Shown here in pieces: positions 14,897-28,422 of a stretch of DNA of 64,000 nt. The stretch lies in assembly GCA_965203635.1 (NCBI GenBank), contig OZ241903.1, positions 292,232 through 356,231 of the forward strand. The letters run 5' to 3'. The translations under genes and the position numbers were made by a program. The first letter of the stretch is position 1, and every line of letters begins with the position of its first letter. The notes below the pieces were generated by a model. That model did not search any database. It worked only from the letters and a program-made list of their open reading frames with translations, and had not been told where the DNA came from. The DNA is from Candidatus Aldehydirespirator sp. Lineage in GTDB: Bacteria; Actinomycetota; Acidimicrobiia; Acidimicrobiales; Aldehydirespiratoraceae.

Positions 14897-14968
14897 GCCC
14901 CCGTAGCTCAGGGGATAGAGCAACGGCCTCCGGAGCCGTGTGCGCAGGTTCGAATCCTGCCGGGGGCG
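14897..14968 (+). tRNA. tRNA-Arg (anticodon CCG)
   Basis: Hand-folded cloverleaf: acceptor GCCCCCG/CGGGGGC, D arm GCTC-AGGGGATA-GAGC, anticodon arm ACGGC-CTCCGGA-GCCGT, T arm GCAGG-TTCGAAT-CCTGC. CCA is not encoded. Confidence 0.9.
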
Positions 14969-14969
14969 C

Positions 14970-16151
14970 ATGACTGTCACGGACGCGGCACCCGCACCGG
15001 CCAAGAAGCCCCGCTGGACCTACCAGTGGAAGGAACTCCACGACGAGGTCATCACCTCGGGACTGTGCACCGGCTGCGCGGGGTGCGTGATCGCCTGCCC
15101 CCACCACGTCATCGGCTACACCCACGAGCCCGGCGCCTACAAGCCGTTCCACCTCGAGGACGACGAGTACGGCCCCGGCGACTGCGTCCACGGGGTGAAG
15201 GGCTGCACGTCCTGCACGAGGGCCTGCCCCCGCTTCCGCATGTGGGAGCCCGAGGCCGACATGCACCTGTTCGGCCGGGAGCGCCACCCCGACGAGATGT
15301 CGGGCGTCTACTCCGACATCCTGCTGACCCGGGCCAGCGACGACTTCGTGTACGACGTGGGCCAGGACGGCGGGCTGGTGTCGGCCATCCTGATCTGGTG
15401 CATGGAGAACGACATCATCGACGGCGCCCTCACCAGCGGGGTGGAGTCGCTGCCCGGTGGCGAGCCGGGCTGGAAGGCGTTCCCGATGGTGGCCACCAAC
15501 CGCGACGAGGTGCTGAGGGGCGCGGGCAGCCGCTACACCTACTCGGCCAACCCGATCGCATTCGAGGAGGCCCGCGACAAGGGGCTGGAGCGCTTGGCGC
15601 TGGTGGGGATGAGCTGCCAGACGTCGGTGGGTCCGGTGATGTGGCACCGCAAGGTGGGCAAGGTCAGCAAGCCGATCAAGCTCAACATCGGCCTGCTGTG
15701 CTCGAAGTCGTTCGACGACTCGCTGTTCGACGAGCTCTTCGAGGTGAAGTACGGGCTGCCCAAGGAGCAGATCTCGAAGATGAACATCAAGGGCGTCTTC
15801 CAGATCTGGACCAAGGACGGCCGCTACTACGAGATCAACCTCAAGGAGTGCCACGCCTGGACCCGGGAGGGCTGCAACCTGTGCCCGGACTTCGCGGCCG
15901 AGCACGCCGACATCTCCACCGGCGGCATCGGGGACCTGACCGACTGGACCCTCACCATCGTGCGCACCGAGCTGGGCCGGGCCGTGATCGACGCCATGGT
16001 GCGCGACGGGGCCATCGAGACCCGCCCCGGCGACGACGACCCGGGCGCCATCGCCCTGATGCACCGCCTGTCGGCCAAGAGCCGGGAGCGCTGGCCCCAC
16101 TGGGCCGACGGCGCGGCCCGCCTGGGGCTGCCCGAACGCAAGACGGCCTGA
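14970..16151 (+). CDS. Coenzyme F420 hydrogenase/dehydrogenase beta-subunit family (FrhB/FdhB-like) Fe-S flavoprotein
   Basis: ATG at 14970 sits just after the tRNA. CTGCAGCVIACP ferredoxin motif and FrhB-like N and C domains (GQDGG, CPDFAAEHADIS). Confidence 0.8.
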   Translation: MTVTDAAPAPAKKPRWTYQWKELHDEVITSGLCTGCAGCVIACPHHVIGYTHEPGAYKPFHLEDDEYGPGDCVHGVKGCTSCTRACPRFRMWEPEADMHLFGRERHPDEMSGVYSDILLTRASDDFVYDVGQDGGLVSAILIWCMENDIIDGALTSGVESLPGGEPGWKAFPMVATNRDEVLRGAGSRYTYSANPIAFEEARDKGLERLALVGMSCQTSVGPVMWHRKVGKVSKPIKLNIGLLCSKSFDDSLFDELFEVKYGLPKEQISKMNIKGVFQIWTKDGRYYEINLKECHAWTREGCNLCPDFAAEHADISTGGIGDLTDWTLTIVRTELGRAVIDAMVRDGAIETRPGDDDPGAIALMHRLSAKSRERWPHWADGAARLGLPERKTA

Positions 16152-16184
16152 TACACAGGCCTCCCAACCCCCAAGGAGCCTGAC

Positions 16185-16799
16185 ATGGACATCGAGTTCT
16201 GGATCGACCCGCTTTGACCCTGGTGCTGGGTGACGGCCCGTTGGGTCGTCGACGAGGTGCAGCCGGCCAAGGACCTGAACATCACCTGGCAGCCGATCAG
16301 CCTGTTCTTCAAGAACGATCCCGATCCTGACTCCGACTACTACACGCACTCCTACTTCAGCCTGAGGCTGATGAGGGTTCTGGAGTCGGTCCGGGAGGCC
16401 GAGGGCGACGACGCGGTGGGCCCCCTGTACTGGGAGTACGGCCGGCGCCTGCACCACGACGGTGTGCGGGAGTTCGCGGTGGCCGACGCGCTGGAGGCGG
16501 TCGGCTACGACACCTCACATGCGGCCGCCTTCGACGACGACTCCTGGGACCCGGAGATCCGCAAACGCATGGACGAGGGCCTGGCCCTATGCGGCGACCA
16601 GGTGGGCACCCCGATGATCGCCCTGAAAGATCGCAACGGCGACAAGCAGGGCTACTTCGGCCCGGTCATCACCCGGGTGCCGCCCCCAGAGGACTCCCTG
16701 GCCATGTGGGACGCCCTGGTGGCCATGATGAACGTGTCCGGCTTCTGGGAACTCAAGCGCACCCGCACCGAACGCCCCGAGTTCGGCCCCCGCCCCTGA
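16185..16799 (+). CDS. DsbA-like / Rv2466c-like thiol reductase with in-frame TGA (candidate selenocysteine) at 16215-16217
   Basis: AAGGAG lies 7 nt upstream of ATG 16185. Read-through gives MDIEFWIDPL-U-PWCWVTARW..., colinear with the FWFDPLCPWCWITSRW active-site region and the C-terminal FWELKRTRTE of Rv2466c-type proteins. The track ORF (GTG 16230) starts after the motif. Confidence 0.65.
16232..16250 (+). promoter_or_regulatory. Candidate bacterial SECIS hairpin
   Basis: GACGGCCC-GUU-GGGUCGUC gives an 8-bp stem (one G-U pair) starting 14 nt after the UGA, with G and U in the apical loop. Confidence 0.35.
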
Positions 16800-16800
16800 A
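16773..16800 (+). repeat. Direct repeat DR-L (cgccccgagttcggcccccgcccctgaa), the true 3' end of the DsbA-like gene
   Basis: 26 of 28 nt identical to 21710-21737. Encodes RPEFGPRP plus TGA. Confidence 0.85.
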
Positions 16801-16810
16801 GCAATCAGAC

Positions 16811-18784
16811 GTGCAGGTCTCAACGATTCTAGACCACATCGACAGCGGCTACATGGCGCTTCCTAAGTTTCAGCGCGGCTACGTGTGGAATCGCGACCAG
16901 GTGCGTGGGCTCATGGAGTCGGCCTACCGCCGCCACCCGGTAGGTAGCCTTCTCGTCTGGGCCACGGCCGCAGACGACGCGCCTCACCGGGGCGAGCGAG
17001 AGTTGGCGCCAGGCGTCGTCAGACTGCTCCTTGACGGCCAGCAGCGAATAACCACCCTCTACGGCATCGTCCGCGGATCACCGCCGTCCTTCTTCGACGG
17101 GAACGCGAGAGCGTTCTCAGATCTCTACTTTCACATCGGGAGCCAGGAGTTTCGGTTCCACCAGCCCTCGCGCATGAAAGGTGACCCACTCTGGGTCGAT
17201 GTAACTGCGCTGATGCGAGAGGGGAACGCTGGACTGGGAAAACACATCGCCAAGCTGACGCAGAACCCCGAGCTCGAGTCGATGCAGGGTGACTTCATCG
17301 GCCGCCTTAACAACATCCTCGGAATCCGCGAGATCGACCTACATGTTGAGGAGGTGACAGGGTCCGACAAGACTGTCGACGTCGTAGTGGATATCTTCAA
17401 CCGCGTAAATGGTGGCGGTACCAAGCTGTCGCAGGGTGACTTGGCGCTCGCAAAGATCTGTGGCTCGTGGCCGGACGGCCGAGAGCACATGCAATCGATC
17501 CTTGAGCGCTGGCGTGGGCGCGGGTACGACTTCACCCTCGACTGGCTGCTTCGCAACGTGAACGCGATCGTGACTGGCGAAGCGCGGTTCGAACACCTCC
17601 ATGATGTATCAACCGCCGATATTCAGAACGGCCTCGACCGTGCCGAAAAGGCCATTAACCACGCCCTGAATCTGATTGCCAACCGGCTCGGCCTCGACCA
17701 TGACCGCGTACTCTTCGGCCGCTACGCGCTGCCGGTCATGTCGCGCTATATCGACCAGCGCGGCGGTCGGTTGGCGGATGCAGCCGAGCGGCGTCGCCTT
17801 CTCTACTGGTACTTCCAGAGTGCGATGTGGGGCCGCTTCTCCGGCTCGACGGAGACGACGCTCAACCAGGACTTCGAAGCGATCGAGGAGCTAGATAGCG
17901 GCCTCGACGGCCTGCTAGATCGACTTCGTCTCTGGCACGGCAGTCTACGCGTAGAGCCCGGGCACTTCCGCGGTTGGAGCCTAGGGGCGCGGTTCTACCC
18001 CGTGCTCTACGCGCTCACGCGCGTGGGTGAAGCCAGGGATTGGGGTACTGGTGACGTCTTGAAGCACGGAATGCTGGGAGCAATGAGCGCGCTCGAAGTG
18101 CACCACATCTTTCCGAAGTCTCTGCTCTACAAGAACGGCTTCGACCGCTCGCGAGTGAACGCCGTCGCGAACTTCTGCTTTCTCACGAAGGGCACGAACT
18201 TGCAGATCAGCGACCGTCCACCCTCGGAATACTTCCATAAGGTCGAGGATGGACACCCGGGTTCACTCGCCTCACAGTGGATCCCAATGGACGAGGCGCT
18301 CTGGGAAATCGACAACTACCCGCGATTCCTCGAAGAACGCCAGCGATTGCTTGCCGCCGCGGCGAATGAGTTGCTTGACGGCTTGCTGCAAGGCGCGGCG
18401 GGGTCGGTCGAGTCCGCGGAGGCGCCTCCCGCCGAAGTCCCAGCGAGCGCTCCGCCAGTAATTCCGGGTGGGATCGCTGAGGAAGACGAGAGGGCCGTGT
18501 TGCAAGCCATCAACGAGTGGGTGCGAGAGCAGGGGCTGCCGGAGGGCTACATGGAGTACGAACTCGCGCATCCCGAGACGGGCGACCCTCTCGCCATCCT
18601 CGACCTCGCGTGGCCGAACGGCCTTCAGCCGGGTTACAGCGATCCGGTCGCGCTGCTGCTCGGCGAGGAACAACAGACCTTGCAAATTGCGAACGACCAT
18701 GGCTTCCGCCACTTCACAAGTGCCGAAGCCTTCAAGCGCCACGCGGAAACCGAGGTGCTGGCCCTCGCTAGCACGGATGGGTAG
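16811..18784 (+). CDS. GmrSD-like DUF262 (ParB/DGQQR) plus His-Me/HNH (DUF1524-like) protein with an extra C-terminal domain
   Basis: ALPKFQRGYVW and LLLDGQQRITTLYGI (DUF262), then EVHHIFPKS...NFCFLTKGTNLQISD (HNH-like). About 150 further aa are of unknown type. GTG 16811 was chosen; the upstream part of the track ORF overlaps the previous gene. Confidence 0.8.
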   Translation: MQVSTILDHIDSGYMALPKFQRGYVWNRDQVRGLMESAYRRHPVGSLLVWATAADDAPHRGERELAPGVVRLLLDGQQRITTLYGIVRGSPPSFFDGNARAFSDLYFHIGSQEFRFHQPSRMKGDPLWVDVTALMREGNAGLGKHIAKLTQNPELESMQGDFIGRLNNILGIREIDLHVEEVTGSDKTVDVVVDIFNRVNGGGTKLSQGDLALAKICGSWPDGREHMQSILERWRGRGYDFTLDWLLRNVNAIVTGEARFEHLHDVSTADIQNGLDRAEKAINHALNLIANRLGLDHDRVLFGRYALPVMSRYIDQRGGRLADAAERRRLLYWYFQSAMWGRFSGSTETTLNQDFEAIEELDSGLDGLLDRLRLWHGSLRVEPGHFRGWSLGARFYPVLYALTRVGEARDWGTGDVLKHGMLGAMSALEVHHIFPKSLLYKNGFDRSRVNAVANFCFLTKGTNLQISDRPPSEYFHKVEDGHPGSLASQWIPMDEALWEIDNYPRFLEERQRLLAAAANELLDGLLQGAAGSVESAEAPPAEVPASAPPVIPGGIAEEDERAVLQAINEWVREQGLPEGYMEYELAHPETGDPLAILDLAWPNGLQPGYSDPVALLLGEEQQTLQIANDHGFRHFTSAEAFKRHAETEVLALASTDG

Positions 18785-18799
18785 CTGCATCGCCGCATA

Positions 18800-18837
18800 C
18801 CGACGACCGGGCTACACACATATGGCCCGGTCGTCGG
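18800..18837. terminator. Perfect 13-bp inverted repeat between convergent genes
   Basis: ccgacgaccgggc-tacacacatatg-gcccggtcgtcgg, 16 nt after the stop at 18784. There is no T-tract, so it could act in either direction. Confidence 0.5.
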
Positions 18838-18950
18838 TCTAGGCGCGGGCCTTGGCGGGCCGACATCCATGACTATGCGGCTGCTGCAGACGTGATCCTG
18901 CGGGTTTCGGCGGAAGTAAGTGCATGTGGCCGCTTCGCTCTTCTCGCGCG

Positions 18951-20255
18951 TCACGAGAACTGCTTGCGCTTTAGCCACACCAGCCCTTCGCCCCGCGAGA
19001 TCACCGCAACATCGATCGGGCCACCGACGACATCGGCACCGGGGGTGAACTTCTCCTGGAACGATGCAAGGTGAACAAGTGTCTCAGCCATCTCCGCCAA
19101 GTGCTCCTTAGGAAGGCCCTGAACCAAATCGAGTAACGGTGCGGCATAGTAGGCAACCCTCATCTCCAACTCATCGGGCATCGAACTAATGACCTCGGAC
19201 GGCAGGGTTTGAAGCCAATCGACAACACCGTCGTAGCGCCTGGGATTCACTAAATCTTGAAGACCGTACGCTACCCGATCGATCAGTGCATTCAACAAGT
19301 CGAACACAATACTATGGTGAGCCTCAAGGAACTGGGGATGTATACCATCTATCAGGGTCCGCGCTACGTCATGTTGCTGCGCCAGCGGATAAATCATTGA
19401 CGCGCAATTGTCGTCAATGCTGATGTGATCGAGATGACGCGCTTTGATAACATTGTCCATGACTTGATCAACAATCCAATGAGTCAAGGATGGAAATAGC
19501 TGTTCATTTCCAAAGCCCGTGACGACCATGCCTGTTGATCCTGGTGACCAATCCGCTGTGCGGAGCGACTGCAATGTCGACCTCTCTAAATCATCTCGCA
19601 GAGTTCGTGTCAGCATCCTCGCGTCAAACGCTAGCAATTCAGGTAACTGACTGAACCAGAGACTCAAGAACTCGTTCCAGCTATTCACGGTCTCGCCATG
19701 CAACTGCCACCCTCTCACTGCTGTCTCCAATTGCTGTACAGCTCTAGTTTCTGAGATGCCAGACACGGGACCAATATCAGTCAGATACTCTGATCTCATT
19801 CGGGCAGCACGACACACCTGATCTTGAAAATAATCTTTCAACGCACCACCATCACTGGGTGCTGTCTGCGCGAAACGCCGCGCGCTTTCCTGCGCCATTC
19901 CACAGAGTTGCTCCAATTCCCAGAGGATCTCTGTCCTTACGAACTCCAGTTGCATCTGTGAAGAGATGTGTGAAACCATCTGCGGTAGGAACTCCACGAA
20001 GCATGAACCGTACTCTTCAACGGTAGAGAAGGACACATCCGTGTGTTCTTGCTTATACTGCTGTACTATCGTTTCCCAAGGTATGGGACCGAGCGATCCG
20101 GCACCATAGAACATGATTAGAACCGGCGGATCGAGCGACAGTGGAAATATCTTGTTTGCCGTCTTGTATACCTTCCTATCAGCTCCCAAGGTCACAGCAC
20201 TGTCGGCCGCGACAGCGACCGCTGCCCGATTGAGTATTGCTACCTCTGCTGTCAT
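18951..20255 (-). CDS. Orphan 434-aa protein with a possible HslV/proteasome-beta-like Ntn-hydrolase core and large helical insertions
   Basis: Clean ORF with AGGTG 5 nt upstream of the ATG. GC is about 47-50 % against about 68 % in the flanks. The first 24 residues, MTAEVAILNRAAVAVAADSAVTLG, align without gaps to E. coli HslV [24 protein letters not shown]. Confidence 0.6.
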   Translation of the reverse strand: MTAEVAILNRAAVAVAADSAVTLGADRKVYKTANKIFPLSLDPPVLIMFYGAGSLGPIPWETIVQQYKQEHTDVSFSTVEEYGSCFVEFLPQMVSHISSQMQLEFVRTEILWELEQLCGMAQESARRFAQTAPSDGGALKDYFQDQVCRAARMRSEYLTDIGPVSGISETRAVQQLETAVRGWQLHGETVNSWNEFLSLWFSQLPELLAFDARMLTRTLRDDLERSTLQSLRTADWSPGSTGMVVTGFGNEQLFPSLTHWIVDQVMDNVIKARHLDHISIDDNCASMIYPLAQQHDVARTLIDGIHPQFLEAHHSIVFDLLNALIDRVAYGLQDLVNPRRYDGVVDWLQTLPSEVISSMPDELEMRVAYYAAPLLDLVQGLPKEHLAEMAETLVHLASFQEKFTPGADVVGGPIDVAVISRGEGLVWLKRKQFS

Positions 20256-20343
20256 TGTTGCACCTGGTTGTCATTGTGATGTGGAATGGACCTAGCATGA
20301 CTGTATCTCCGCATCTGCCAGCCGGCCCGAGCAACTGGGTGCG

Positions 20344-21573
20344 CTAGCCCCATAGGGCGGCGATCGGGATCGCCTCTATTCGATCCTCCAGACGGAACTG
20401 GGCCGGGCCGGTGTGAAGCACCACTCCCGCCTTGAAGCCGTCCCCAAGCTGATCACGCAGCCACACCAGATGGCGGGCGTGGGCGAGCGTGGGCGCGCTG
20501 TGGGCCTTGATCTCCATGCCGATGAGGCCTCGTGCACCCAGATCGGCGATCAGATCCACCTCGTGGCGACCGTCGCGGTCGCGCAGGTGGTACAACCTCG
20601 GCCGGATCGGGTCCACAACGATCTCGGCGCGCAGCTGGTTCGTTACGAACGTGTCGATCAGCCGACCGAGGAGATCGCCGTCGCTCATGACCAGACGCAG
20701 GTCGGCGCCGACGGCCGAGGCCCACAGGCCGGTGTCGGCCACGAATCGCTTCGGCCCGCGGGCCAGGCGCTTGAGGCGGTTGCTGCTCCACGCTGGGAGC
20801 TCAGCTATCACGCCGAGGTCGCAGAGCAGCCTGGTGTACGAGAGCGATGTGCGCCGGTCCAGGCCGGCGGCCTGGTGGAGGGTTGTGTCGTTCACGATCC
20901 CCGCAGAGTTCAGCGCGTACGCCTGGAAGAACTCGATCAGCCTGGGGGGATCGCCGCCGCGGCGCCCGGCGGCGCGTTCATGGGTGAGCAGCTGATCCAG
21001 GTAGCTGTCGAGCCAGCCGGCCCGAACGCTGCCGGCAAGTTCGATGGCCGGCTCGGGAAAGCCGCCGCGCAGCGCTATCTCGGCATAGCCGCGCAGGTCG
21101 GGCGGGTCGCTCGGGACGGACAGCGGCTCCGCTGACAACAACCCGCTCAGGAACGGGCGCGAGGGCGCCGAGACCAGCTCCCGTACGGTCAGAGGATGCA
21201 TGGCAATCCTGATGAGACGACCCGTACCTGGCCAGAGGGCCGGATCCGCATCAGAGCGGACCGAGCCCGTCAGAATGAACCGTCCGACCCGGCGATCGGC
21301 ATCCACCGCCCGCTTGACGGCACCGAGCACACCGGGGCATGCCTGCCACTCGTCGAGCAGCACAGGCTCGGGCCGATCCCGCAGCGCCGCGTCGGGATCG
21401 GCCTCAATAGGGAAGGCCTCGCGCTCGTTGTCCAGCCGCACGACGCTGGCGGCGTGGCGCAGGGCGGTGGTGGTCTTGCCTGAAGCGCGCGCACCGGTGA
21501 TCATCACTGCCGGCGCTGAGGCCAGGACCTCAGCGATCCAAGGATCAACTAGGCGCTCCAAGTAGCGGTCCAC
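20344..21573 (-). CDS. AAA(AAA_14)-type ATPase with a DUF4143 (PD-(D/E)xK-like) C-terminal domain
   Basis: Walker A GARASGKTT, Walker B VLLDEWQ, C-terminal EVDLIAD...GMEIKAHS. GTG start at 21573. Confidence 0.85.
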   Translation of the reverse strand: MDRYLERLVDPWIAEVLASAPAVMITGARASGKTTTALRHAASVVRLDNEREAFPIEADPDAALRDRPEPVLLDEWQACPGVLGAVKRAVDADRRVGRFILTGSVRSDADPALWPGTGRLIRIAMHPLTVRELVSAPSRPFLSGLLSAEPLSVPSDPPDLRGYAEIALRGGFPEPAIELAGSVRAGWLDSYLDQLLTHERAAGRRGGDPPRLIEFFQAYALNSAGIVNDTTLHQAAGLDRRTSLSYTRLLCDLGVIAELPAWSSNRLKRLARGPKRFVADTGLWASAVGADLRLVMSDGDLLGRLIDTFVTNQLRAEIVVDPIRPRLYHLRDRDGRHEVDLIADLGARGLIGMEIKAHSAPTLAHARHLVWLRDQLGDGFKAGVVLHTGPAQFRLEDRIEAIPIAALWG

Positions 21574-21602
21574 ATTCGCATGCTACCCGCCTACGCACAT
21601 AA

Positions 21603-21710
21603 GAATGCCGTTCTAGCGCACTCTTGAATGCCGGTTTGGCGCATTAGTGAAGACGGATATAGCGCATGCTCTCATGCTGGTTTGGCGCACTCCGATGCCG
21701 GTTGCTCTCC
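21603..21710 (+). repeat. Four direct copies of an 18-19-nt motif ATGC(C/T)GGTTTGGCGCA(C/T)
   Basis: Copies: gaatgccgttctagcgcac (21603), gaatgccggtttggcgcat (21626), tcatgctggtttggcgcac (21672), cgatgccggttgctctcc (21693). They lie between the start of gene 20344-21573 and DR-R. Confidence 0.55.
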
Positions 21711-21737
21711 GCCCCGAGTTCGGCCCCCGGCCCTAAA
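21710..21737 (+). repeat. Direct repeat DR-R (cgccccgagttcggcccccggccctaaa)
   Basis: 26 of 28 nt identical to 16773-16800. In the corresponding frame it would also read RPEFGPRP plus TAA, although it is not attached to any ORF. Confidence 0.85.
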
Positions 21738-21803
21738 CCCTTACGGCACACACCCGAAACTGATGCAATCTCTACTTTGGATTGTCATGATAATCTAAAG
21801 GAC

Positions 21804-22958
21804 ATGTTTCAGCGGTTGCTGTCACTGCCGGAGCCCGGGACCGAGACCTTCTTCCTGTGGGGGCCGCGACAGGCGGGAAAGAGCACCCTGCTCAGGCAGC
21901 GGTGCCCCGACGGGATTTGGGTCGATCTGCTCAAGGCGGACGAGTTCCGCCGCTACGCGACCCGCCCGGAGCAATTGCGCGAGGAACTGGAGGCGGCGGG
22001 CCCGGACCCGTCGCGCCAGGTGGTCATCGACGAGATCCAGAAGGTTCCCGCCCTGCTCGACGAGGTGCACTGGCTGATCGAGAACCGCGGGCTGCGGTTC
22101 GCCCTGTGCGGATCGAGCGCGCGCAAGGTGCGGCGAGGCGCGGCGAACCTGCTTGGCGGACGGGCCCTGCGCTACGAATTGCGCGGCCTGACCGCCGGAG
22201 AGCTCGGGGAATCCTTCGACCTCGACCGGATGCTCAACCACGGCTGCCTGCCCTCGATCTACGGGTCCAGCGGGCACCGGCGCCGGCTCGACGCCTACAT
22301 CGCCGACTACCTGCGTCAGGAGGTCGCCGCCGAGGGACTGGTGCGAAACCTGCCCGCCTTCTCGGACTTCCTCGACGCAGCCGCGCTGAGCGACACCAAT
22401 GGTGTCAACTATTCGAACGTTGCTCGCGAGTGCGGCGTGTCGGGACCCACCGCCAAGGCGTACTTCGGCATCCTGGAGGACACGCTGCTGGCTCGCTGGC
22501 TGCCCCGCTGGCGACGCCGGGCGAAGCGCCGCCTGGCCGGCGCGCCCAAGCTCTACTTCGAGGATGTGGGCCTCGTGAACCGTCTGGCGCGGCGCGGCGA
22601 ACTGCACCGCGGTTCTGACGAGTACGGCAAGGCGTTCGAGAACTGGGTGTTCCATGAGCTCTCGGCGTTCCTCGCATATCGAGAGCGCGACGAGCAACTG
22701 ACCTACTGGCGACTCCCAAGCGGCATCGAGGTCGACTTCGTGGTCGGCGACATGCGGATCGCGATCGAGGCGAAGGCGAGCGCCAGAGTCACCAACAGGC
22801 ACCTCAAAGGCCTCCGCACCCTCGCCGAGGAGCACCCTGGCGTCGGTCGCCGGGCCGTGGTCAGCCTCGAACCTCGCCCACGCCGCACCAGCGACGGCAT
22901 CGACGTCATCGGCGCAGAGAACTTCGCCCGACAACTCTGGCAAGGCGAACTCGTGTAG
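21804..22958 (+). CDS. AAA(AAA_14)-type ATPase with a DUF4143 (PD-(D/E)xK-like) C-terminal domain, second copy
   Basis: ATG 21804 follows an AT-rich stretch. Walker A GPRQAGKST, Walker B VVIDEIQ, C-terminal EVDFVVGD...IAIEAKAS. Confidence 0.85.
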   Translation: MFQRLLSLPEPGTETFFLWGPRQAGKSTLLRQRCPDGIWVDLLKADEFRRYATRPEQLREELEAAGPDPSRQVVIDEIQKVPALLDEVHWLIENRGLRFALCGSSARKVRRGAANLLGGRALRYELRGLTAGELGESFDLDRMLNHGCLPSIYGSSGHRRRLDAYIADYLRQEVAAEGLVRNLPAFSDFLDAAALSDTNGVNYSNVARECGVSGPTAKAYFGILEDTLLARWLPRWRRRAKRRLAGAPKLYFEDVGLVNRLARRGELHRGSDEYGKAFENWVFHELSAFLAYRERDEQLTYWRLPSGIEVDFVVGDMRIAIEAKASARVTNRHLKGLRTLAEEHPGVGRRAVVSLEPRPRRTSDGIDVIGAENFARQLWQGELV

Positions 22959-22965
22959 TGCCGGC

Positions 22966-24108
22966 CTACGGGCCGCAGAAGTGTGACCAGACGGCTCCGG
23001 ACCTGGCCGGGCCTATGCCTCTGACCGCTTCGAGGTCTGCCCGGCTGGAGAACGGCTGGGCGGCGACCAGCCTGGCGGAGAGCACCTCTCCGATGCCGGA
23101 AACCGCGTCGTACTGAGCCGCGGTCTTGCCCGCGATCACGCACTCGTCGGGAGGGGCAATCGTGGTCGTCGGCGGGACTGTCGTCGTCGGCGGGACTGTC
23201 GTCGTCGGCGGGACTGTCGTCGTAGTGGCCGGCGGTTCGGCCGAGAACCCGGGCGCCTGATCGCCGCATCCCGACAGCGTCCGGCTGAGGGCATCCGCCT
23301 CGGCCTGGTCGACGGCCAGGTCCCATGCCGACTTGACCGTCACCGTGACCCGAGCCAGCAAGCAACGCCCGGCCGACGTGACCGTGTACCCGCCACCGCA
23401 TGCCGACGACCGGGCGATGTCGGCGTCGGACCACTCGGAGATGTCGTCTCCGCCCTTGGACTGGTTCACGCAGGCACGCGACGCCACGTGGTTGGCCGGG
23501 TCCTGGCTGAAGCGCTGCTTCGCGTTCCCGGACCACGCCCAGCCGCCCGACTCGTGCGCCTCGTGCAAGGCCACCACATGATCGACGTTGCAGGTGTCGA
23601 TGGGGGTGCCGGTATAGGGGTCAGGAGAGCCGACCGCTCCGCGGCACAGACCGCTGTTGTGGGGGCCCCAGGCGTCGCGGTCGTAGCCAGCGTCGTATTC
23701 CGCCGCCACCGACAGCGAGATCGAAGGGATGGACGTCGTCGGTACAGACACCTCCGGCACGGACTCCGTACCTTCTGCCCCTGCAACTGTTGCCGTCGGC
23801 GCCGATATCGACGGCACCGAGACCGAGGGCGCGGAGACCTCAGGTGCAGAGGCAGTTGGAACCGAGACCTCGGGCACATACACCTCAGGCACAGAACCGG
23901 ACGGCGCAGACACCTCCGGCACAGACGTTGCACTCGTGGACGGGGTGGACTCGTCCTCGGGGGTGGTGAGTGGCGGCGCCGGGTCCTCGGTTGAGCCGCG
24001 GCCATCAATCGATCCGCAGGCGGCTGTGATGACCAGCGCCAGTACCGCTGTGACTCGTATGAGCCGTCCGAACCAGAACTCAGCGCTGCGTTCAGACTCG
24101 GACCACAT
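22966..24108 (-). CDS. Lipoprotein-type secreted HNH/DUF1524 nuclease with a ComEA-like helix-hairpin-helix C-terminus
   Basis: Lipobox LVITAAC, Ser/Pro/Val/Glu-rich linker, VDHVVALHEAHESGG...NHVASRACVNQSKGGDDISEW (DUF1524-type His-Me finger), (TTVPPT)n linker, then SGIGEVLSARL...VRGIGPARS (HhH). Confidence 0.7.
   Translation of the reverse strand: MWSESERSAEFWFGRLIRVTAVLALVITAACGSIDGRGSTEDPAPPLTTPEDESTPSTSATSVPEVSAPSGSVPEVYVPEVSVPTASAPEVSAPSVSVPSISAPTATVAGAEGTESVPEVSVPTTSIPSISLSVAAEYDAGYDRDAWGPHNSGLCRGAVGSPDPYTGTPIDTCNVDHVVALHEAHESGGWAWSGNAKQRFSQDPANHVASRACVNQSKGGDDISEWSDADIARSSACGGGYTVTSAGRCLLARVTVTVKSAWDLAVDQAEADALSRTLSGCGDQAPGFSAEPPATTTTVPPTTTVPPTTTVPPTTTIAPPDECVIAGKTAAQYDAVSGIGEVLSARLVAAQPFSSRADLEAVRGIGPARSGAVWSHFCGP
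23165..23218. repeat. 18-bp x 3 perfect tandem repeat inside the coding sequence (encodes the TTTVPP linker)
   Basis: gtcgtcggcgggactgtc occurs three times in tandem. Confidence 0.9.
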
Positions 24109-24484
24109 TTAGTGCTTCGACGTGCGGGAAGTCTCGGTCCTGGGTTACGACCGGCACCCCGAGCGCCATCGCGGTGGCGGCGATCCAGGAGTCGTTGACC
24201 GGCATGTTCAACTTCTCGTCGCGCAGGATCAGGCGAAGCCTGGCCCATGCCGAGGCGACGCCCTCATCCACCGGCACCGGCTGGAGCGAGAGCGCAGCCG
24301 CCAGCGTGGAGAGCCGCCGGTCGCGGGTGGGCGTGTCGGTTGCGGCGAGCACCCCGGCCCGCAACTCGCCGATGGTGATCACCGATACAGCGAGCTCCTC
24401 GGGGAGGGACTCTGCCAAGATCGACCTTCCCGTCTCCCGCGCGATGAAGACGGAGGTGTCGGCGAGTCCCCGGCTCAACGCCAC
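24092..24484 (-). CDS. vapC: PIN-domain toxin VapC
   Basis: GTG 24484 overlaps the vapB stop by 10 nt. LADTSVFI...ELRAGV...NDSWIAATA...VVTQDRDF carries the PIN acidic residues. Confidence 0.85.
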   Translation of the reverse strand: MALSRGLADTSVFIARETGRSILAESLPEELAVSVITIGELRAGVLAATDTPTRDRRLSTLAAALSLQPVPVDEGVASAWARLRLILRDEKLNMPVNDSWIAATAMALGVPVVTQDRDFPHVEALNVVRV

Positions 24485-24729
24485 AGCAGGTCGTCGGTCG
24501 TGTCGCCGGCCAGCGACGCCAGGTCCGCGGTGAGCCCGGCATCGGCCTGATGAGCGAGCACATCGTGGACGAAGCGGCTTCTGCTCATCCACCGCGGCCT
24601 CTCAGCCACGGGAGCCAGTTCCGCCACCGGGCGCCCGTTCACGGTGACGGTGATGCGCTCCCCGTCGGCCACACGATCGAGGAGCGCCCGAGTCTGATTC
24701 CGCAGGTCCCTAGAGGCAACCTCACTCAT
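24475..24729 (-). CDS. vapB: Phd/YefM-type antitoxin (VapB)
   Basis: MSEVASRDLRNQTRALLDRVADGERITVTVNGRPVAELAPV, a typical Phd/YefM N-terminus, upstream of and overlapping vapC. Confidence 0.8.
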   Translation of the reverse strand: MSEVASRDLRNQTRALLDRVADGERITVTVNGRPVAELAPVAERPRWMSRSRFVHDVLAHQADAGLTADLASLAGDTTDDLLWR

Positions 24730-24738
24730 GCGACAATC

Positions 24739-24754
24739 GTAGCACAATTGCTAC
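24739..24754. promoter_or_regulatory. Candidate antitoxin operator palindrome GTAGCA-caat-TGCTAC
   Basis: 6-bp inverted arms 10 nt upstream of the vapB ATG. Confidence 0.3.
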
Positions 24755-24909
24755 AGCCCGCCTCCGAGGTCGCCGAGGGCGGCGCGGCTGCATGAGCGAC
24801 CACATGTCCGAGCCGCTTTCGGTGTGGATTCCTTCCGCTTGCTCCGTTAGTTTCGGGTGTTCCGGAACTTGATCAGGTTCGCAAGTCTGCCGGCGTGAGG
24901 AGTCCCGAC

Positions 24910-27429
24910 ATGACGGCCATCTTCCGCCGAGCCATCGGCAGCAGGGCAGCATCGATAGTCGAGACGTCGTGGGCGGCGAGGTGGGCGAGGTGCCTGGCGG
25001 CAACCGTCATGGTGGCGTCGGCGGCGGCGGTGACGCATGCGCCGGCCGCAGCCCAATCCGCGGGCTTCTCAGACGTTACCGGCGGATTCTACAAGCCCGC
25101 CGTCGACGCACTGGCCGCGCTGGGCACCTTCGAGGGCACCCTCTGCGGAGACGACACCTTCTGCCCCGACAAGCCCCTCAAGCGCTCGACGATGGCGGTG
25201 TGGGTGGTACGAGTCCTCGACGGCGCGGACCCGTCGCCGATTTTACGGTCGCGCTTTGACGATGTGGACGGCGACAGCTTCTACGCGCCGTTCATCGAGC
25301 GCATGGCCGATCTGGGCGTCACCGAGGGATGCGGTGACGGCAGCGGGTTCTGCCCCGACAGCAGCGTGAGCCGAGCGCAGATGGCGGTGTTCCTCTCACG
25401 CGCCTTCAAGCTGCCCGCGGCACCGGACCCGAGCTTTGTGGATGTTGCCTCCGACGCCTGGTACGCGGGTCACGTGGCCCGCCTCGCGGCGTCGGGCATC
25501 ACCACAGGATGCGGTGACGGCAGCGGGTTCTGCCCCGACAGCAACACGACCCGCGCCCAGATGGCCACCTTCCTGCATCGCGGCCTTGGCCTCGTCGAAA
25601 CCCCGGAGGCCGAGCCGGTGCCGGAGACCGGCGAGAGCGACGACGAGGCCTTCCTCAACGACCATGTCAGCAACGATCAAGGCAGCGCGCAGCACCGTGC
25701 ATGGTGGCGACGTCCACGAGGCAATCTGCGCGTCAAGCTCCATGTGTGCGCGGAACGCGGCTTCGAGCATCTGTTCTCTCCCAGCGACCTCACGGCGTAT
25801 GCCGACGCAGCCAACGAGCAGATCGCGCCGTTCTACTCCTGGCAGTCGTCGGGACTGCTTTCCGTGCAGTTCGAGCCCGGCCAGATCGTCGCATCTGAAA
25901 TATTGGCTGACATGAAGCACTACACGAATTGGAAAAGTGTTATGGCCCCTGAGGACTGCTTCACAGTGGAGTCGAACATCGGGCAACCTGGTGTCGTACA
26001 CCATTATCTGCTGTACGGAGAGGACTATGAGACCCGCAATAGGGGCCTCGCACTCTTAGCTGGGCCTCGCAGCGCCACCTACCTGCGCCATCACCTAAGC
26101 GCTGGTCCAAATCCACTTGAGATCACACCTGATCGCTTGTTCGTCCTCCAACATGAACTGGATCACAACATCAACGCGCCCCACCTCAATGGCGCGCCGT
26201 TGGGCAACACTCGAGTATGGGCTTCTGAACGCAGCCGCCCCATAACGGTAGGCACGCTCGCGGGCTATCCCGATATCCCGAGACTGAAGGACAGCGGGTT
26301 GGACGAAGCAGGCGAACTCTACGAAGTCTATTCGGTCTTTCCCTGCTATGTCCTGGTCCGGCTGGGATGGCCGATGGGCGACCACCACCCCGCCTGCGGC
26401 CGCTGGCCCCCTCCCCCAGTGCGCGATGTCGCGGCACAGACCGACCCAGATGGCACATTCCGGGTGACATGGAGGCCCCCGTCAAGTGATCTCAACCCTG
26501 AGCCGGTGACAGGCTACGAGATCGAACTGTTGGAGTGGCGGGGCAACGTCGGCGAACCGACCAACACATTCCGCGTCTCGTCCGACACCACATCTCTCAC
26601 CCTGCCATCGCTGGAGTTGTACGTCCCGTACGGCGTGAACGTCTGGGCGACTTCGGCTGCGGGCGTCGGCGACCTTACCTGGCCTGTCGACATCCGCTAC
26701 TACGGGCCCGCCGCACAGATCAGAGTCGCCGACAGATCGGGCACGGAATGGGCTGCTTACGACTTGAGTTGGGATCCCGTCCCCGGTGCCAGTCACTACC
26801 TGGTCAGCGGCTTCGAGGACTGTACATACACGTTCGAGAACAGCCCTGACGGCCTCGGCCGCTCGTCGAGCGTGTGCTCGCAGCGCACCGAGACAGCCTC
26901 GATCACGCTCAGCGAGGCTCAGAACCACCTTGAAGCAGGACGATCATATGAGATCACCGTCTTCGCCTGCGGGGAGGGCTTCGACGAGACCCGGCTGCAG
27001 TGGCCCGATGCCGGAGACTGCTTCGCCTACGGAACAACGACCATCGACGCGCAGGCTCGAGGGTTCAAAGCCGTGGAGTTCGCACTCATCGATGGCTGCG
27101 TCTGGTTCCAGCCGGGAGCAGAGATGGACGAGGCGAATGCGGCCGGACCGTGCTACATCGTGGAATGGGTGCCGAGTCCCGGAGCGACCGAGTACGACGC
27201 CGTCGCCTGGCTGTGCCCCAACGACGGCGGGCCGTGCCGCGGAGAGGGCCTCGGGGCATACGACGATAGCTACTCCATCTCGGACGCCAAGGTCACCGCG
27301 AGACTCGACCTGGAGTACGGGAAGCGCTACGAGGTGACGGTCGACGTCGACTGCCGGGGACCAGCCGATACGGGCACATGCTTCCGCTATGCACGGGGCT
27401 GGGTGACGGTACCAGCCCGCGGCAACTGA
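24910..27429 (+). CDS. Large secreted surface protein with 3 SLH-like repeats, a metzincin-type HExxH domain and FN3-like repeats
   Basis: GAGGAG lies 6 nt before ATG 24910. Signal peptide ...AAAVTHAPAAAQS; three F(S/D/V)DV...GCGDGSGFCPD...RAQMA.FL.R repeats; QHELDHNINAPH; FN3-like VTWRPPSS...VTGYEIELLEW. Confidence 0.75.
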   Translation: MTAIFRRAIGSRAASIVETSWAARWARCLAATVMVASAAAVTHAPAAAQSAGFSDVTGGFYKPAVDALAALGTFEGTLCGDDTFCPDKPLKRSTMAVWVVRVLDGADPSPILRSRFDDVDGDSFYAPFIERMADLGVTEGCGDGSGFCPDSSVSRAQMAVFLSRAFKLPAAPDPSFVDVASDAWYAGHVARLAASGITTGCGDGSGFCPDSNTTRAQMATFLHRGLGLVETPEAEPVPETGESDDEAFLNDHVSNDQGSAQHRAWWRRPRGNLRVKLHVCAERGFEHLFSPSDLTAYADAANEQIAPFYSWQSSGLLSVQFEPGQIVASEILADMKHYTNWKSVMAPEDCFTVESNIGQPGVVHHYLLYGEDYETRNRGLALLAGPRSATYLRHHLSAGPNPLEITPDRLFVLQHELDHNINAPHLNGAPLGNTRVWASERSRPITVGTLAGYPDIPRLKDSGLDEAGELYEVYSVFPCYVLVRLGWPMGDHHPACGRWPPPPVRDVAAQTDPDGTFRVTWRPPSSDLNPEPVTGYEIELLEWRGNVGEPTNTFRVSSDTTSLTLPSLELYVPYGVNVWATSAAGVGDLTWPVDIRYYGPAAQIRVADRSGTEWAAYDLSWDPVPGASHYLVSGFEDCTYTFENSPDGLGRSSSVCSQRTETASITLSEAQNHLEAGRSYEITVFACGEGFDETRLQWPDAGDCFAYGTTTIDAQARGFKAVEFALIDGCVWFQPGAEMDEANAAGPCYIVEWVPSPGATEYDAVAWLCPNDGGPCRGEGLGAYDDSYSISDAKVTARLDLEYGKRYEVTVDVDCRGPADTGTCFRYARGWVTVPARGN

Positions 27430-27462
27430 CGCCTGCTCCTGCCGAGCGGCCCGCAACCGTCG

Positions 27463-28422
27463 TCAGTGGTCGGGCTGGACGGTCTCCACCGGTTCGCCCC
27501 TGAGCGCCGCCAGGACCTTGGCGACTACCTGGACTGAGACGTCGCGCTGGGCTGCGCCGGTGCTGGCGCCGAGGTGGGGGGTGTGGACGACCCTGGGGTG
27601 GCCGATCAGGGGGTGACCGGGCGACGGGGGCTCCTGGTCGTAGACGTCGAGGCCCAACCCTCCGAGGCGACCGTCGTCGAGGGCGGCACGGGCCGCGGCG
27701 GGGTCGATGAGGCTGCCCCGGGCCGCGTTCACCACGACCGCGCCCGGCTTGATGGCCGCGAACGCGGCCTCGTCGAGCAGAGCGGAGCCGTCCTGGAGCG
27801 CCACCGCATGCAGGCTCACGAAGTCGGACGCGGCCAGCAGTTCGGGCAGCTCGACCATCCTGGCCCCGTGCTCGGTGGCCACCTCGGCACCGATGTACGG
27901 ATCGGTGGTCAGTACGGCCATCTCGAAGGCGAGCGCCCGGTGGCCGACAGCCCGTCCGATGCGGCCGAAACCGACCAGGCCGAGCGTGGCGCCGGCCAGC
28001 TGCATGCCGACGTACTGCTTGCGGTCCCAGTTGCCGTCCGCCAGCGAGTTGTGGGCGTCGGTGATGCGCCGGGCCGCGGCCAGCATCAGCGCGAAGGCGT
28101 GCTCGGCCGCAGCCAGGGTGTTGGCCTCCGGGGTGTTGACCACCGCAATGGCCTTCTCGGCCGCCGCGGCCAGGTCGATGTTGTCGACGCCCACGCCGGC
28201 GCGGCCGATCACCCGCAGGCTCGCCCCGGCCGCGATCAGCTCGGCGTCGGCCTGGGTGCCGCTGCGGACGATCAAGGCGGCGGCGTCGCGCATCGACTCC
28301 AGCAGCTCGACCCGGCTCTGCCCGTCCGCGAAGACGGCCTCGACGCCGGGAGAGGCGCGCAGGCGGTCCGCACCGGCTGCCCCCAGCGGATCGGCCACCA
28401 GCACCTTGTGTCGTTTAGGCAT
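27463..28422 (-). CDS. D-isomer-specific 2-hydroxyacid (phosphoglycerate-type) dehydrogenase
   Basis: ATG 28422 (MPKRHKVLVADPL). NAD motif GLVGFGRIGRAV; catalytic R/E/H region ...TPHLGAST. Confidence 0.85.
   Translation of the reverse strand: MPKRHKVLVADPLGAAGADRLRASPGVEAVFADGQSRVELLESMRDAAALIVRSGTQADAELIAAGASLRVIGRAGVGVDNIDLAAAAEKAIAVVNTPEANTLAAAEHAFALMLAAARRITDAHNSLADGNWDRKQYVGMQLAGATLGLVGFGRIGRAVGHRALAFEMAVLTTDPYIGAEVATEHGARMVELPELLAASDFVSLHAVALQDGSALLDEAAFAAIKPGAVVVNAARGSLIDPAAARAALDDGRLGGLGLDVYDQEPPSPGHPLIGHPRVVHTPHLGASTGAAQRDVSVQVVAKVLAALRGEPVETVQPDH

Follow-up and report, generated by a model that had tools for sequence, protein, structure and literature searches.

A displaced gene end in a variable interval for candidate defense genes of Candidatus Aldehydirespirator

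When the 3' end of a gene recurs at the far edge of a block of DNA that follows the gene, are the two copies the attachment sites of a mobile element or a scar of another kind? The question is raised by a locus in a 64,000-nucleotide stretch from Candidatus Aldehydirespirator sp. (contig OZ241903.1 of assembly GCA_965203635.1, positions 292,232 to 356,231), which we refer to as the window and whose own numbering is used throughout. Here a 28-bp sequence that contains the end of an Rv2466c-like gene occurs on both sides of a 4.9-kb block comprising a GmrSD-like gene, an open reading frame (ORF) for a 434-aa protein and an ATPase gene (ATPase-1), and the second copy is followed by another ATPase gene (ATPase-2) and a 380-aa gene. 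An earlier note, made from the sequence alone, had seen in the pair the classic attL/attR footprint of an integrative element. We propose that the right copy is instead the relic of a non-homologous joint, of the kind known from homology-facilitated illegitimate recombination (HFIR) or '3'-end displacement', in a defense hotspot that is free of recombinases, a reading to which we give slightly more belief than doubt.

Two copies of one gene end and the single-copy allele

The left 28-mer (CGCCCCGAGTTCGGCCCCCGCCCCTGAA, 16773-16800) and the right 28-mer (CGCCCCGAGTTCGGCCCCCGGCCCTAAA, 21710-21737) are direct repeats that are identical at 26 of 28 positions, as the earlier note had described, and they are the only matches with three or fewer mismatches in the window, while 100 dinucleotide-preserving shuffles gave none. 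The abrupt loss of similarity that had been reported outside the 28 nt was likewise found at both edges, left and right. The first 20 nt are the same in both copies, and neither of the two differences, CGC to CGG and TGA to TAA, alters the encoded sequence. The 189-aa Rv2466c-like gene truly ends in the left copy (RPEFGPRP-TGA plus one base), and the description of that copy as the real end of a DsbA-like gene is borne out by a match to PF22234 (E 1.2e-30). This TGA/CGC type of gene end is common among relatives. In the equivalent frame the right copy reads RPEFGPRP-TAA plus one base and, as had also been stated, belongs to no real gene; the ORF that overlaps it is a spurious 5' extension of ATPase-2, whose true start at 21804 is set by its homologs. 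It derives from the 3' end of the Rv2466c-like gene by displacement, and the end that the gene now has at 16773-16800 has been regenerated. The right copy matches at 28 of 28 positions the functional gene end of a metagenome contig, L138, and the CGG/TAA variant was found only in these two places. That the two differences are synonymous and that the right copy corresponds exactly to the L138 allele is in keeping with two allelic origins rather than with a duplication in situ.

Contig L138 was reached by a search with ATPase-2, which led to a protein cluster (P0002) listed at 100% identity and to the 3-kb metagenome contig that encodes it. The contig starts with CCGGCTTCTGGGAACTCAAGCGCACCCGCACCGAA, continues with CGCCCCGAGTTCGGCCCCCGGCCCTAAA and then with CCCTTACGGCAC..., after which come the palindrome of the ATPase-2 leader, ATPase-2 and the 380-aa gene. 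Its first 35 nt are those of window 16738-16772, and over window 21710-22965 there are only five differences in 1256 nt (99.6% identity), such that the single 28-mer of L138 is flanked on its left as the left copy is in the window and on its right as the right copy is. The gene end ...RPEFGPRP-TAA runs directly into the sequence from 21738 onward, and this is the empty site that the earlier note had predicted, with 35 nt of the gene visible upstream. A gene end followed by ...CTTACGGCAC... is also present at the functional gene end of another relative (L007) and within a relic in L006. The right copy in the window was once a genuine gene end, and the context is its native one. Beyond ATPase-2, the identity between the window and L138 is 87-95% in the 380-aa gene, and the PIN-Phd-SLH block that follows in the window is missing from L138.

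Displaced ends of the Rv2466c-like gene are found at other lengths in relatives. That of L006 comprises 46 nt (perhaps about 60) and is joined to the end of an SLH-type gene, while that of L027 comprises 482 nt, is 99.6% identical and is joined to a fragment of a 2-hydroxyacid dehydrogenase gene, with the copies (L027 10001-13811) being separated by a 3.2-kb insert that contains an RCC1-repeat gene, an ATPase-like ORF and a MazF-type toxin pair. The joints are thus located relative to the gene end at -28 in the window, at about -46 to -60 in L006 and at -482 in L027. In L032 (10549-10719) a 74-nt unit containing the gene end is present in three tandem copies. The same small interval is rich in relics of other fragments, which are products of internal deletion in the two ATPase genes, including the last 75 nt of ATPase-1 with the adjoining repeat array (L001), a few bases of ATPase-1 (L005 and L139), 13 and 22 nt of ATPase-2 (L007) and the ATPase-2 palindrome only (L018). 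It also holds one microhomology joint. Contig L143, which is 99.2% identical to window 18656-20370, has an internal ATPase-2 fragment fused to the last 130 nt of the GmrSD-like gene across a 12/13-nt microhomology (CTGCTCGRCGAGG). The order at about 1510-1830 of L143, read as its reverse complement, is a trypsin-like peptidase gene, a decayed, L006-type relic of the Rv2466c-like end, the ATPase-2 fragment and the GmrSD end. A decayed second 28-mer that appeared by eye to be present in L001 and L002, in the flank from the repeat array to the 380-aa gene (17-18/27), was rejected as unproven after local alignment against 2000 shuffles (p of about 0.1-0.2). What is seen at this locus and its relatives, namely an intact gene with its own end next to a displaced 3' fragment, two allelic origins and a variable position of the joint, are the features expected of HFIR.

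A variable interval and its modules

The interval and its immediate flanks contain the following features.

16230-16799, plus strand: Rv2466c-like gene (DsbA fold, mycothiol-dependent nitroreductase family), conserved left flank of the hotspot; Pfam PF22234, E 1.2e-30
16773-16800, plus strand: left 28-mer, functional end of the Rv2466c-like gene; also found as the gene end in relatives
16811-18784, plus strand: GmrSD-like gene, candidate defense gene, module A; Pfam GmrSD_N, E 6.4e-25, and PADLOC HEC-05, E 1.1e-40
18800-18837, no strand assigned: hairpin with a perfect 13-bp stem between the convergent GmrSD-like and 434-aa genes; read from the sequence
18951-20255, minus strand: 434-aa low-GC ORF, module B; phrog_5990, E 8.2e-75
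20344-21573, minus strand: ATPase-1 (AAA_14 and DUF4143), candidate defense gene of type PDC-S01, module C; Pfam, and PADLOC PDC-S01, E 2.7e-94
21603-21705, plus strand: array of about four 23-nt repeat units and a partial one (GATGCCGGTTTGGCGCA-type), 5' of ATPase-1, right end of module C; from the sequence
21710-21737, plus strand: right 28-mer, the displaced gene end; identical to the L138 gene end
21738-21803, plus strand: leader of ATPase-2, including a 26-nt palindrome (21775-21800) that is nearly perfect; conserved before ATPase-2 homologs
21804-22958, plus strand: ATPase-2, the second AAA_14 and DUF4143 (PDC-S01) gene; Pfam, and PADLOC, E 7.5e-56
22966-24108, minus strand: 380-aa gene (weak HHH motif), conserved right flank, convergent; sequence and synteny

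A search with the Rv2466c-like protein yielded 53 loci in species-representative genomes, and these were mapped by tblastn and blastn. Nearly all of them are metagenome-assembled genomes (MAGs) of Acidimicrobiales, many with the title Candidatus Aldehydirespirator, and the samples and MAG series are ones that we take to be sponge- or marine-associated. The identical Rv2466c-like protein is encoded on four metagenome contigs. The gene is syntenic in more than 40 Acidimicrobiales loci, and in about 35 the order of argS, tRNA-Arg, FrhB-like and Rv2466c-like genes on one side, and of the genes for the 380-aa protein, 2-hydroxyacid dehydrogenase and amidohydrolase on the other, is maintained. One sequence, OZ220727.1, has the FrhB/Rv2466c-like locus twice, 2.7 Mb apart (L025 and L048), and the L048 copy has a small internal duplication in its Rv2466c-like gene.

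The content between these flanks is highly variable. A distance of 15-50 nt separates the stop codons of the two flanking genes in the empty alleles (L003, L004 and about a dozen species), in which window 16800 is joined directly to 22966. The variable region is hence 16801-22965, or 6.2 kb, and ATPase-2 is part of it although this gene is beyond the repeats; ATPase-2 is absent from the empty alleles. ATPase-2 directly follows the Rv2466c-like gene in L028, L029, L035, L138 and L139, and it is preceded by the 23-nt repeats in L014, L046 and L026, while ATPase-1 stands alone in L018 and both ATPases are present in L006 and L142. ATPase-1 is also present in L002, with remnants in L001, L005 and L139, that of L139 being located to the right of ATPase-2. 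Other occupants of the hotspot are an RNA ligase, a DDE insertion sequence (IS), TnpB, a DUF222-HNH gene and a MazF-type pair. In L002 a DUF4268 gene replaces the GmrSD-like gene and is followed by the 434-aa gene and ATPase-1 (95% nucleotide identity), and the ATPase-1 side runs straight to the 380-aa gene without ATPase-2 and without a second 28-mer. In L142 the GmrSD-like gene (91% nucleotide identity) adjoins ATPase-1 (90%), with neither the 434-aa gene nor a 28-mer relic. The 4.9-kb block had been treated as one inserted unit, and this did not hold, as the modules occur apart in L002, L142, L018, L139 and L143 and the region that varies is 6.2 kb. It is a mosaic of three modules that are found independently in relatives, the GmrSD-like gene, the 434-aa gene and the PDC-S01 ATPase with its 23-nt array, and the window is the only one of the occupied loci examined to have the 28-nt repeat. 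What lies between the Rv2466c-like and 380-aa genes is a hotspot without a recombinase for candidate defense genes in Acidimicrobiales of the Candidatus Aldehydirespirator type.

The PADLOC matches of the cargo are to candidate families only (PDC-S01 and HEC-05), and its role in defense is a predicted one. The earlier identification of a GmrSD-like enzyme was confirmed by the match to Pfam GmrSD_N (E 6.4e-25), and that of a DUF4143 ATPase was confirmed and refined to PDC-S01 by PADLOC. The GmrSD-like protein has a DUF262 N-terminal domain and an HNH-like C-terminal motif, and the start of its gene is backed by a called protein (P0121). Its closest relatives on record are 81-84% identical, for which reason a near-identical donor was rejected; one relative (P0122) is from an unrelated defense island and another (P0197) is that of L142 at the hotspot, where the contig begins inside the gene. 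The two ATPases of the window are 27% identical to each other in pairwise comparison. Exact-protein look-ups of the window's ATPase-2, GmrSD-like, ATPase-1 and 434-aa proteins found none on record.

The 434-aa protein had been called HslV-like, a label that none of the tools confirmed, since there were no sequence matches in Pfam, PADLOC, NCBIfam or PDB, and Foldseek with the AlphaFold model gave nothing below E 0.1, with a proteasome-type Anbu chain ranking 42nd at E 2.3. The model has a mean predicted local distance difference test score of 70.5 and its conserved termini are poorly modelled. The family has invariant residues T2, D18 and K35 and a conserved C-terminal GGPxDVAVIS, which to us recall proteasome-type N-terminal nucleophile (Ntn) hydrolases, and the protein is possibly an Ntn-hydrolase-like accessory or defense protein. 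Among the loci compared, its gene is common only to L002 (95%) and L143 (99.2%), and homologs at 23-27% identity are encoded by prophages and satellites of Streptococcus as well as by other phages. The family has thousands of metagenomic relatives and is in no curated family. The GC profile was as earlier described, with values of 0.585-0.655 for the GmrSD-like gene in 400-nt segments located within it, 0.49-0.54 for the 434-aa ORF and about 0.69-0.70 for ATPase-1.

The palindrome at 21775-21800 (CTTTGGATTGTCATGATAATCTAAAG) is 26 nt long, AT-rich and located 3 nt before the ATG of ATPase-2. It is conserved 5' of ATPase-2 homologs in hotspot loci and, as TTGACAcTTCAAATTATCATGATAATTTGAAGT, 5' of homologs (L058-L137) from unrelated metagenomes of 39-71% GC. 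Its appearance is that of a promoter and overlapping operator for an almost leaderless gene, and it seems to travel with the cassette. One of these homologs, in L058 (MKWU01000250.1), is 89% identical to ATPase-2 of the window, and the contig has a GC content of 57% and no Rv2466c-like neighbor, which suggests that the cassette has recently passed between genomes that are quite unlike each other. The 23-nt repeats conform to the motif G[CT][CT]GNNT[TA]NGCGCA and are present in 1-7 copies, always on the plus strand. In 137 loci and the window the motif clusters only at the hotspot (L001, L002, L005, L006, L013, L014, L018, L026, L046, L047, L139 and L142), with isolated single matches elsewhere in five loci. 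In the window the array abuts the right 28-mer. The array persists where ATPase-1 is missing, and in L139 it is to the right of ATPase-2; that it serves as an ATPase-1 operator is our guess. A search of Rfam with 16000-24000 gave no match at E up to 1, and scans of promoters and terminators gave nothing above the expectation from shuffles.

The genes on either side are of a housekeeping kind. To the left of the hotspot are argS, tRNA-Arg(CCG) and the FrhB-like gene, and to the right are a PIN-Phd pair and genes for an SLH/fn3 protein, a 2-hydroxyacid dehydrogenase and an amidohydrolase. The distance from the tRNA-Arg(CCG) gene (14897-14969) to the hotspot is 1.8 kb, and this gene does not serve as the insertion point. 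It overlaps the listed start of the FrhB-like ORF (14940-16151), and the real start of the latter is therefore further downstream. The PIN-Phd pair and SLH/fn3 gene between the 380-aa and 2-hydroxyacid dehydrogenase genes (23835-27478) are missing or replaced in L138 and many species, indicating a second variable interval next door.

Origin of the joint

If the 28-mer were an attachment site, a recombinase might be expected in the block or close to it. A Pfam scan of 57 ORF candidates of at least 90 aa in the window, filtered by GC content at the third codon position, revealed no integrase, excisionase, resolvase, transposase or relaxase in the cargo, among its neighbors or in any of the scanned candidates, the others of which encode ATP synthase, rho, amino acid biosynthesis, electron transfer flavoprotein, ccm and similar functions. 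Likewise, a set of 33 ORFs taken from 11 further occupied copies of the locus contained no recombinase, and the only genes of a mobile type in it are a DDE IS, TnpB and DUF222-HNH, with IS elements in L047 and L023. The earlier observation that no integrase is inside or beside the segment hence stands. A transposon with target-site duplication was rejected, as the two ends score lower for inverted repeats than shuffled sequences do on average and no transposase was found, and so was a module dependent on Xer and dif, such as an integrative mobile element exploiting Xer (IMEX) or pdif, as the 28-mer contains no dif-like 11-6-11 dyad (arm complementarity 2/11). The only symmetry that can be read in the 28-mer is a 4+4 dyad around GT, without core-type arms, and the 28-mer is absent from IMG/VR. 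With no recombinase found, a mosaic cargo and displaced ends of variable length, the classic attL/attR footprint is not supported. The view of the block as a mobile island lacks support, and of the two fates that had been considered for such an island, decay or mobilization in trans, the latter is unlikely.

We propose that the content of the hotspot turns over by homologous exchange through the conserved flanks together with frequent non-homologous joints. The source allele of the right 28-mer would have been a CGG/TAA-type Rv2466c-like gene directly 5' of ATPase-2, as in L138. At one joint, position -28 of that gene would have become the neighbor of the ATPase-1 module, whose right end is ...GATGCCGGTTGCTCTC, and an intact gene end of the CGC/TGA type would have been supplied on the other side of the GmrSD/434-aa/ATPase-1 block. 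The incoming DNA would have been anchored at one end by homology in the conserved flank and joined at the other without homology, for which the most likely mechanism is HFIR. Such events could have taken place in three orders. The 4.9 kb with its own gene end may have entered an L138-like allele, the direction assumed in the earlier note. Conversely, a 1.26-kb block of 28 nt, leader and ATPase-2 from an L138-like donor may have become trapped beside a resident GmrSD/434-aa/ATPase-1 block, with the right crossover in the 380-aa gene. Lastly, L138 may be the result of a deletion between the two repeats. All three orders fit, each needs one joint with no or very short homology, and the identity profiles are ambiguous. 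The second is favored by the drop in identity to L138 from 99.6% to 87-95% just past ATPase-2, a pattern typical of a recently recombined block, and by the closest relatives (L005, L001 and L002), in which the 380-aa gene immediately adjoins the ATPase-1 module or what is left of it, while the third would explain why the CGG/TAA variant is confined to the right copy and L138.

Several points weigh against a non-homologous joint. A repeat at both edges, a regenerated gene end and a single-copy allele are exactly the product of site-specific integration, and the 23-nt array beside the right copy is readable as a set of arm-type binding sites. Moreover, the search for a recombinase covered 64 kb of a chromosome of about 3.5 Mb, L138 begins only 35 nt 5' of the 28-mer with the rest of its gene unseen, and at the window's own joint the donor sequence is seen only as far as ...GCTCTC, the microhomology of 12/13 nt being that of a different joint in L143. 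Illegitimate joints are also experimentally rare (PMC5361080).

One alternative is that the block is an island resembling the cis-mobilizable elements (CIMEs), without an integrase of its own, in which the 28-mer is the attachment core, the 23-nt repeats are arm-type sites and the recombinase is encoded elsewhere, by an integrative and conjugative element (ICE), a prophage or the chromosome. The direct repeat at both edges with its abrupt loss of similarity, the single-copy allele L138 (99.6% identical over 21710-22965), the array directly beside the right copy and the 20 identical leading nt, which leave space for a crossover region, are all accounted for in this way. Yet we consider such an island unlikely, given that neither the candidates in the window nor the 11 other occupied copies provided a recombinase, that the 28-nt repeat is at one locus only among those examined, and that it is missing from L002 and L142, whose cargo includes modules of the same kind. 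In addition, the cargo is mosaic and its right end is unlike that of the L006 insertion, the ends displaced by 46 and 482 nt elsewhere speak against a fixed core, and the repeat array is also present where there is no duplication and on either side of ATPase-2. A 28-mer that has only a 4+4 dyad around GT with no core-type arms, and that is absent from IMG/VR, also speaks against such a core. Were site-specific excision to occur, the circle would have the junctions ...GCTCTC-28-mer-GCAATCAG..., that is, ...GGTTGCTCTC-28-mer-GCAATCAGAC.... The broader proposition that the 28-mer is a working attachment site that moves a recombinase-less defense block, either through the action of the DUF4143 ATPase on the 23-nt array or by a recombinase whose gene is elsewhere, is in our judgment improbable; if it were true, the difference between the window and L138 would represent active mobility of defense cassettes in sponge symbionts.

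Host recombination through the short homology itself is a further candidate, either as a Campbell-type exchange through the 28-mer of a circular or linear intermediate that carried the 28-nt gene end or as a deletion between the repeats that gave rise to L138, in which case the duplication would be older. It is consistent with the identical stretch of 20 nt and 26/28 identity overall, with the CGG/TAA variant being confined to the right copy and L138, as if the L138 end descended from the relic, and with the changes being synonymous only, as a reactivated gene end would require. However, the origin of the first duplication is left unexplained, and L138 is divergent in its flanks (the 380-aa gene is 87-95% identical and the PIN-Phd-SLH block is missing), so that L138 is no simple deletion derivative. 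A homology of 20-28 nt is also near the lower limit for RecA-dependent exchange, and we regard this route as an improbable one. Less credible still is a self-mobile DUF4143 ATPase cassette, with module ends that extend from the stop codon (CTAGCCCCA) to the 23-nt repeats, which would have made the joint by inserting or homing. The ATPase-1 module does have the same two ends in at least three neighbor contexts, miniature remnants retain both ends (L001, L005 and L139), and homologs of ATPase-2 with the conserved promoter palindrome are found in metagenomes of 39-71% GC; DUF4143 is also reportedly mentioned once in a survey of the PD-(D/E)XK phosphodiesterase superfamily. Nevertheless, the ATPase-1 module and its repeats were seen at one locus only and in a constant orientation, the module is flanked neither by duplications nor by inverted repeats of its own, its PADLOC class is that of a candidate defense gene, and internal deletions explain the retained ends equally well. 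Finally, the joint could be an assembly artefact in which two strain haplotypes were stitched together at a shared gene end. Several haplotypes of the locus are found together in one sample series, the break in L138 is about 55 nt inside the shared sequence, as it would be at a branch point of an assembly graph, and L001 is an inverted-duplicate (palindromic) metagenome contig and probably a misassembly. Against this, the joint ...GCTCTC|CGCCCC involves no k-mer shared between haplotypes, and reads must therefore contain it, the window is from a contig of 3,536,242 bp, the L006 relic is on a record titled 'chromosome: 1' and the L027 relic is on a 3.7-Mb contig. We consider an artefact to be very hard to believe.

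Known hotspots and known scars

Is this, then, a new type of element? As a locus it closely resembles the core defense hotspots cDHS1 and cDHS2 of Pseudomonas aeruginosa, which are not obviously part of a mobile element and for which exchange through conserved flanks was proposed as the route (Johnson et al., 2023; PMC10250203). Both comprise an interval between core genes that is empty in many relatives and that, when filled, holds varying defense genes or candidates of lower GC content. The locus described here differs in being much smaller (0-6 kb), in being located in uncultivated, sponge-associated Acidimicrobiales and in having mostly candidate occupants (PDC-S01 and HEC-05-like), and its joints are resolved to the base, including that with a displaced gene end. 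As pointed out by the authors of the cDHS study (PMC10250203), how chromosomal defense hotspots without mobile-element genes are built up is an open question. Our analysis provides a base-resolved case in uncultivated sponge symbionts, in which near-identical strains differ by a 4.9-kb block and one joint has been kept as a displaced gene end, and it supports the growth of hotspots by illegitimate joints that are anchored by flanking homology rather than by dedicated integrases.

As a scar, the right 28-mer is comparable with the orphan 3' ends of Rhs, contact-dependent inhibition and type VI secretion system effector-immunity loci, which are attributed to HFIR (Kirchberger et al., 2017; PMC5361080, and references therein). 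In both, new DNA with its own gene end is upstream, the old 3' end has been pushed downstream as a non-coding relic, there is no integrase and the lengths of the relics differ between lineages. On the other hand, the gene concerned here is for a redox enzyme of a housekeeping type with an invariant C-terminus, such that the displacement yields no functional 'new tip' and is a by-product, and the cargo is of defense-type genes and not of toxin-immunity pairs.

CIMEs of Streptococcus thermophilus are integrase-less derivatives of islands that tyrosine integrases place at the 3' ends of genes or tRNA genes. Direct repeats of the target 3' end, a regenerated gene and a single-copy allele in a close strain are common to such islands and to the locus described here, but here neither the candidates scanned in the window nor the 11 other occupied copies yielded an integrase, no core recurs, and the cargo is mosaic and is also present without the repeat. 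What we describe is no new kind of system but a known kind of locus, a recombinase-free defense hotspot, with a known kind of scar, a displaced 3' end. Its unusually fine resolution comes from the existence of both alleles, at 99.6% identity. It may serve both as a worked example and as a warning that not every duplication of a 3' end is an attachment site.

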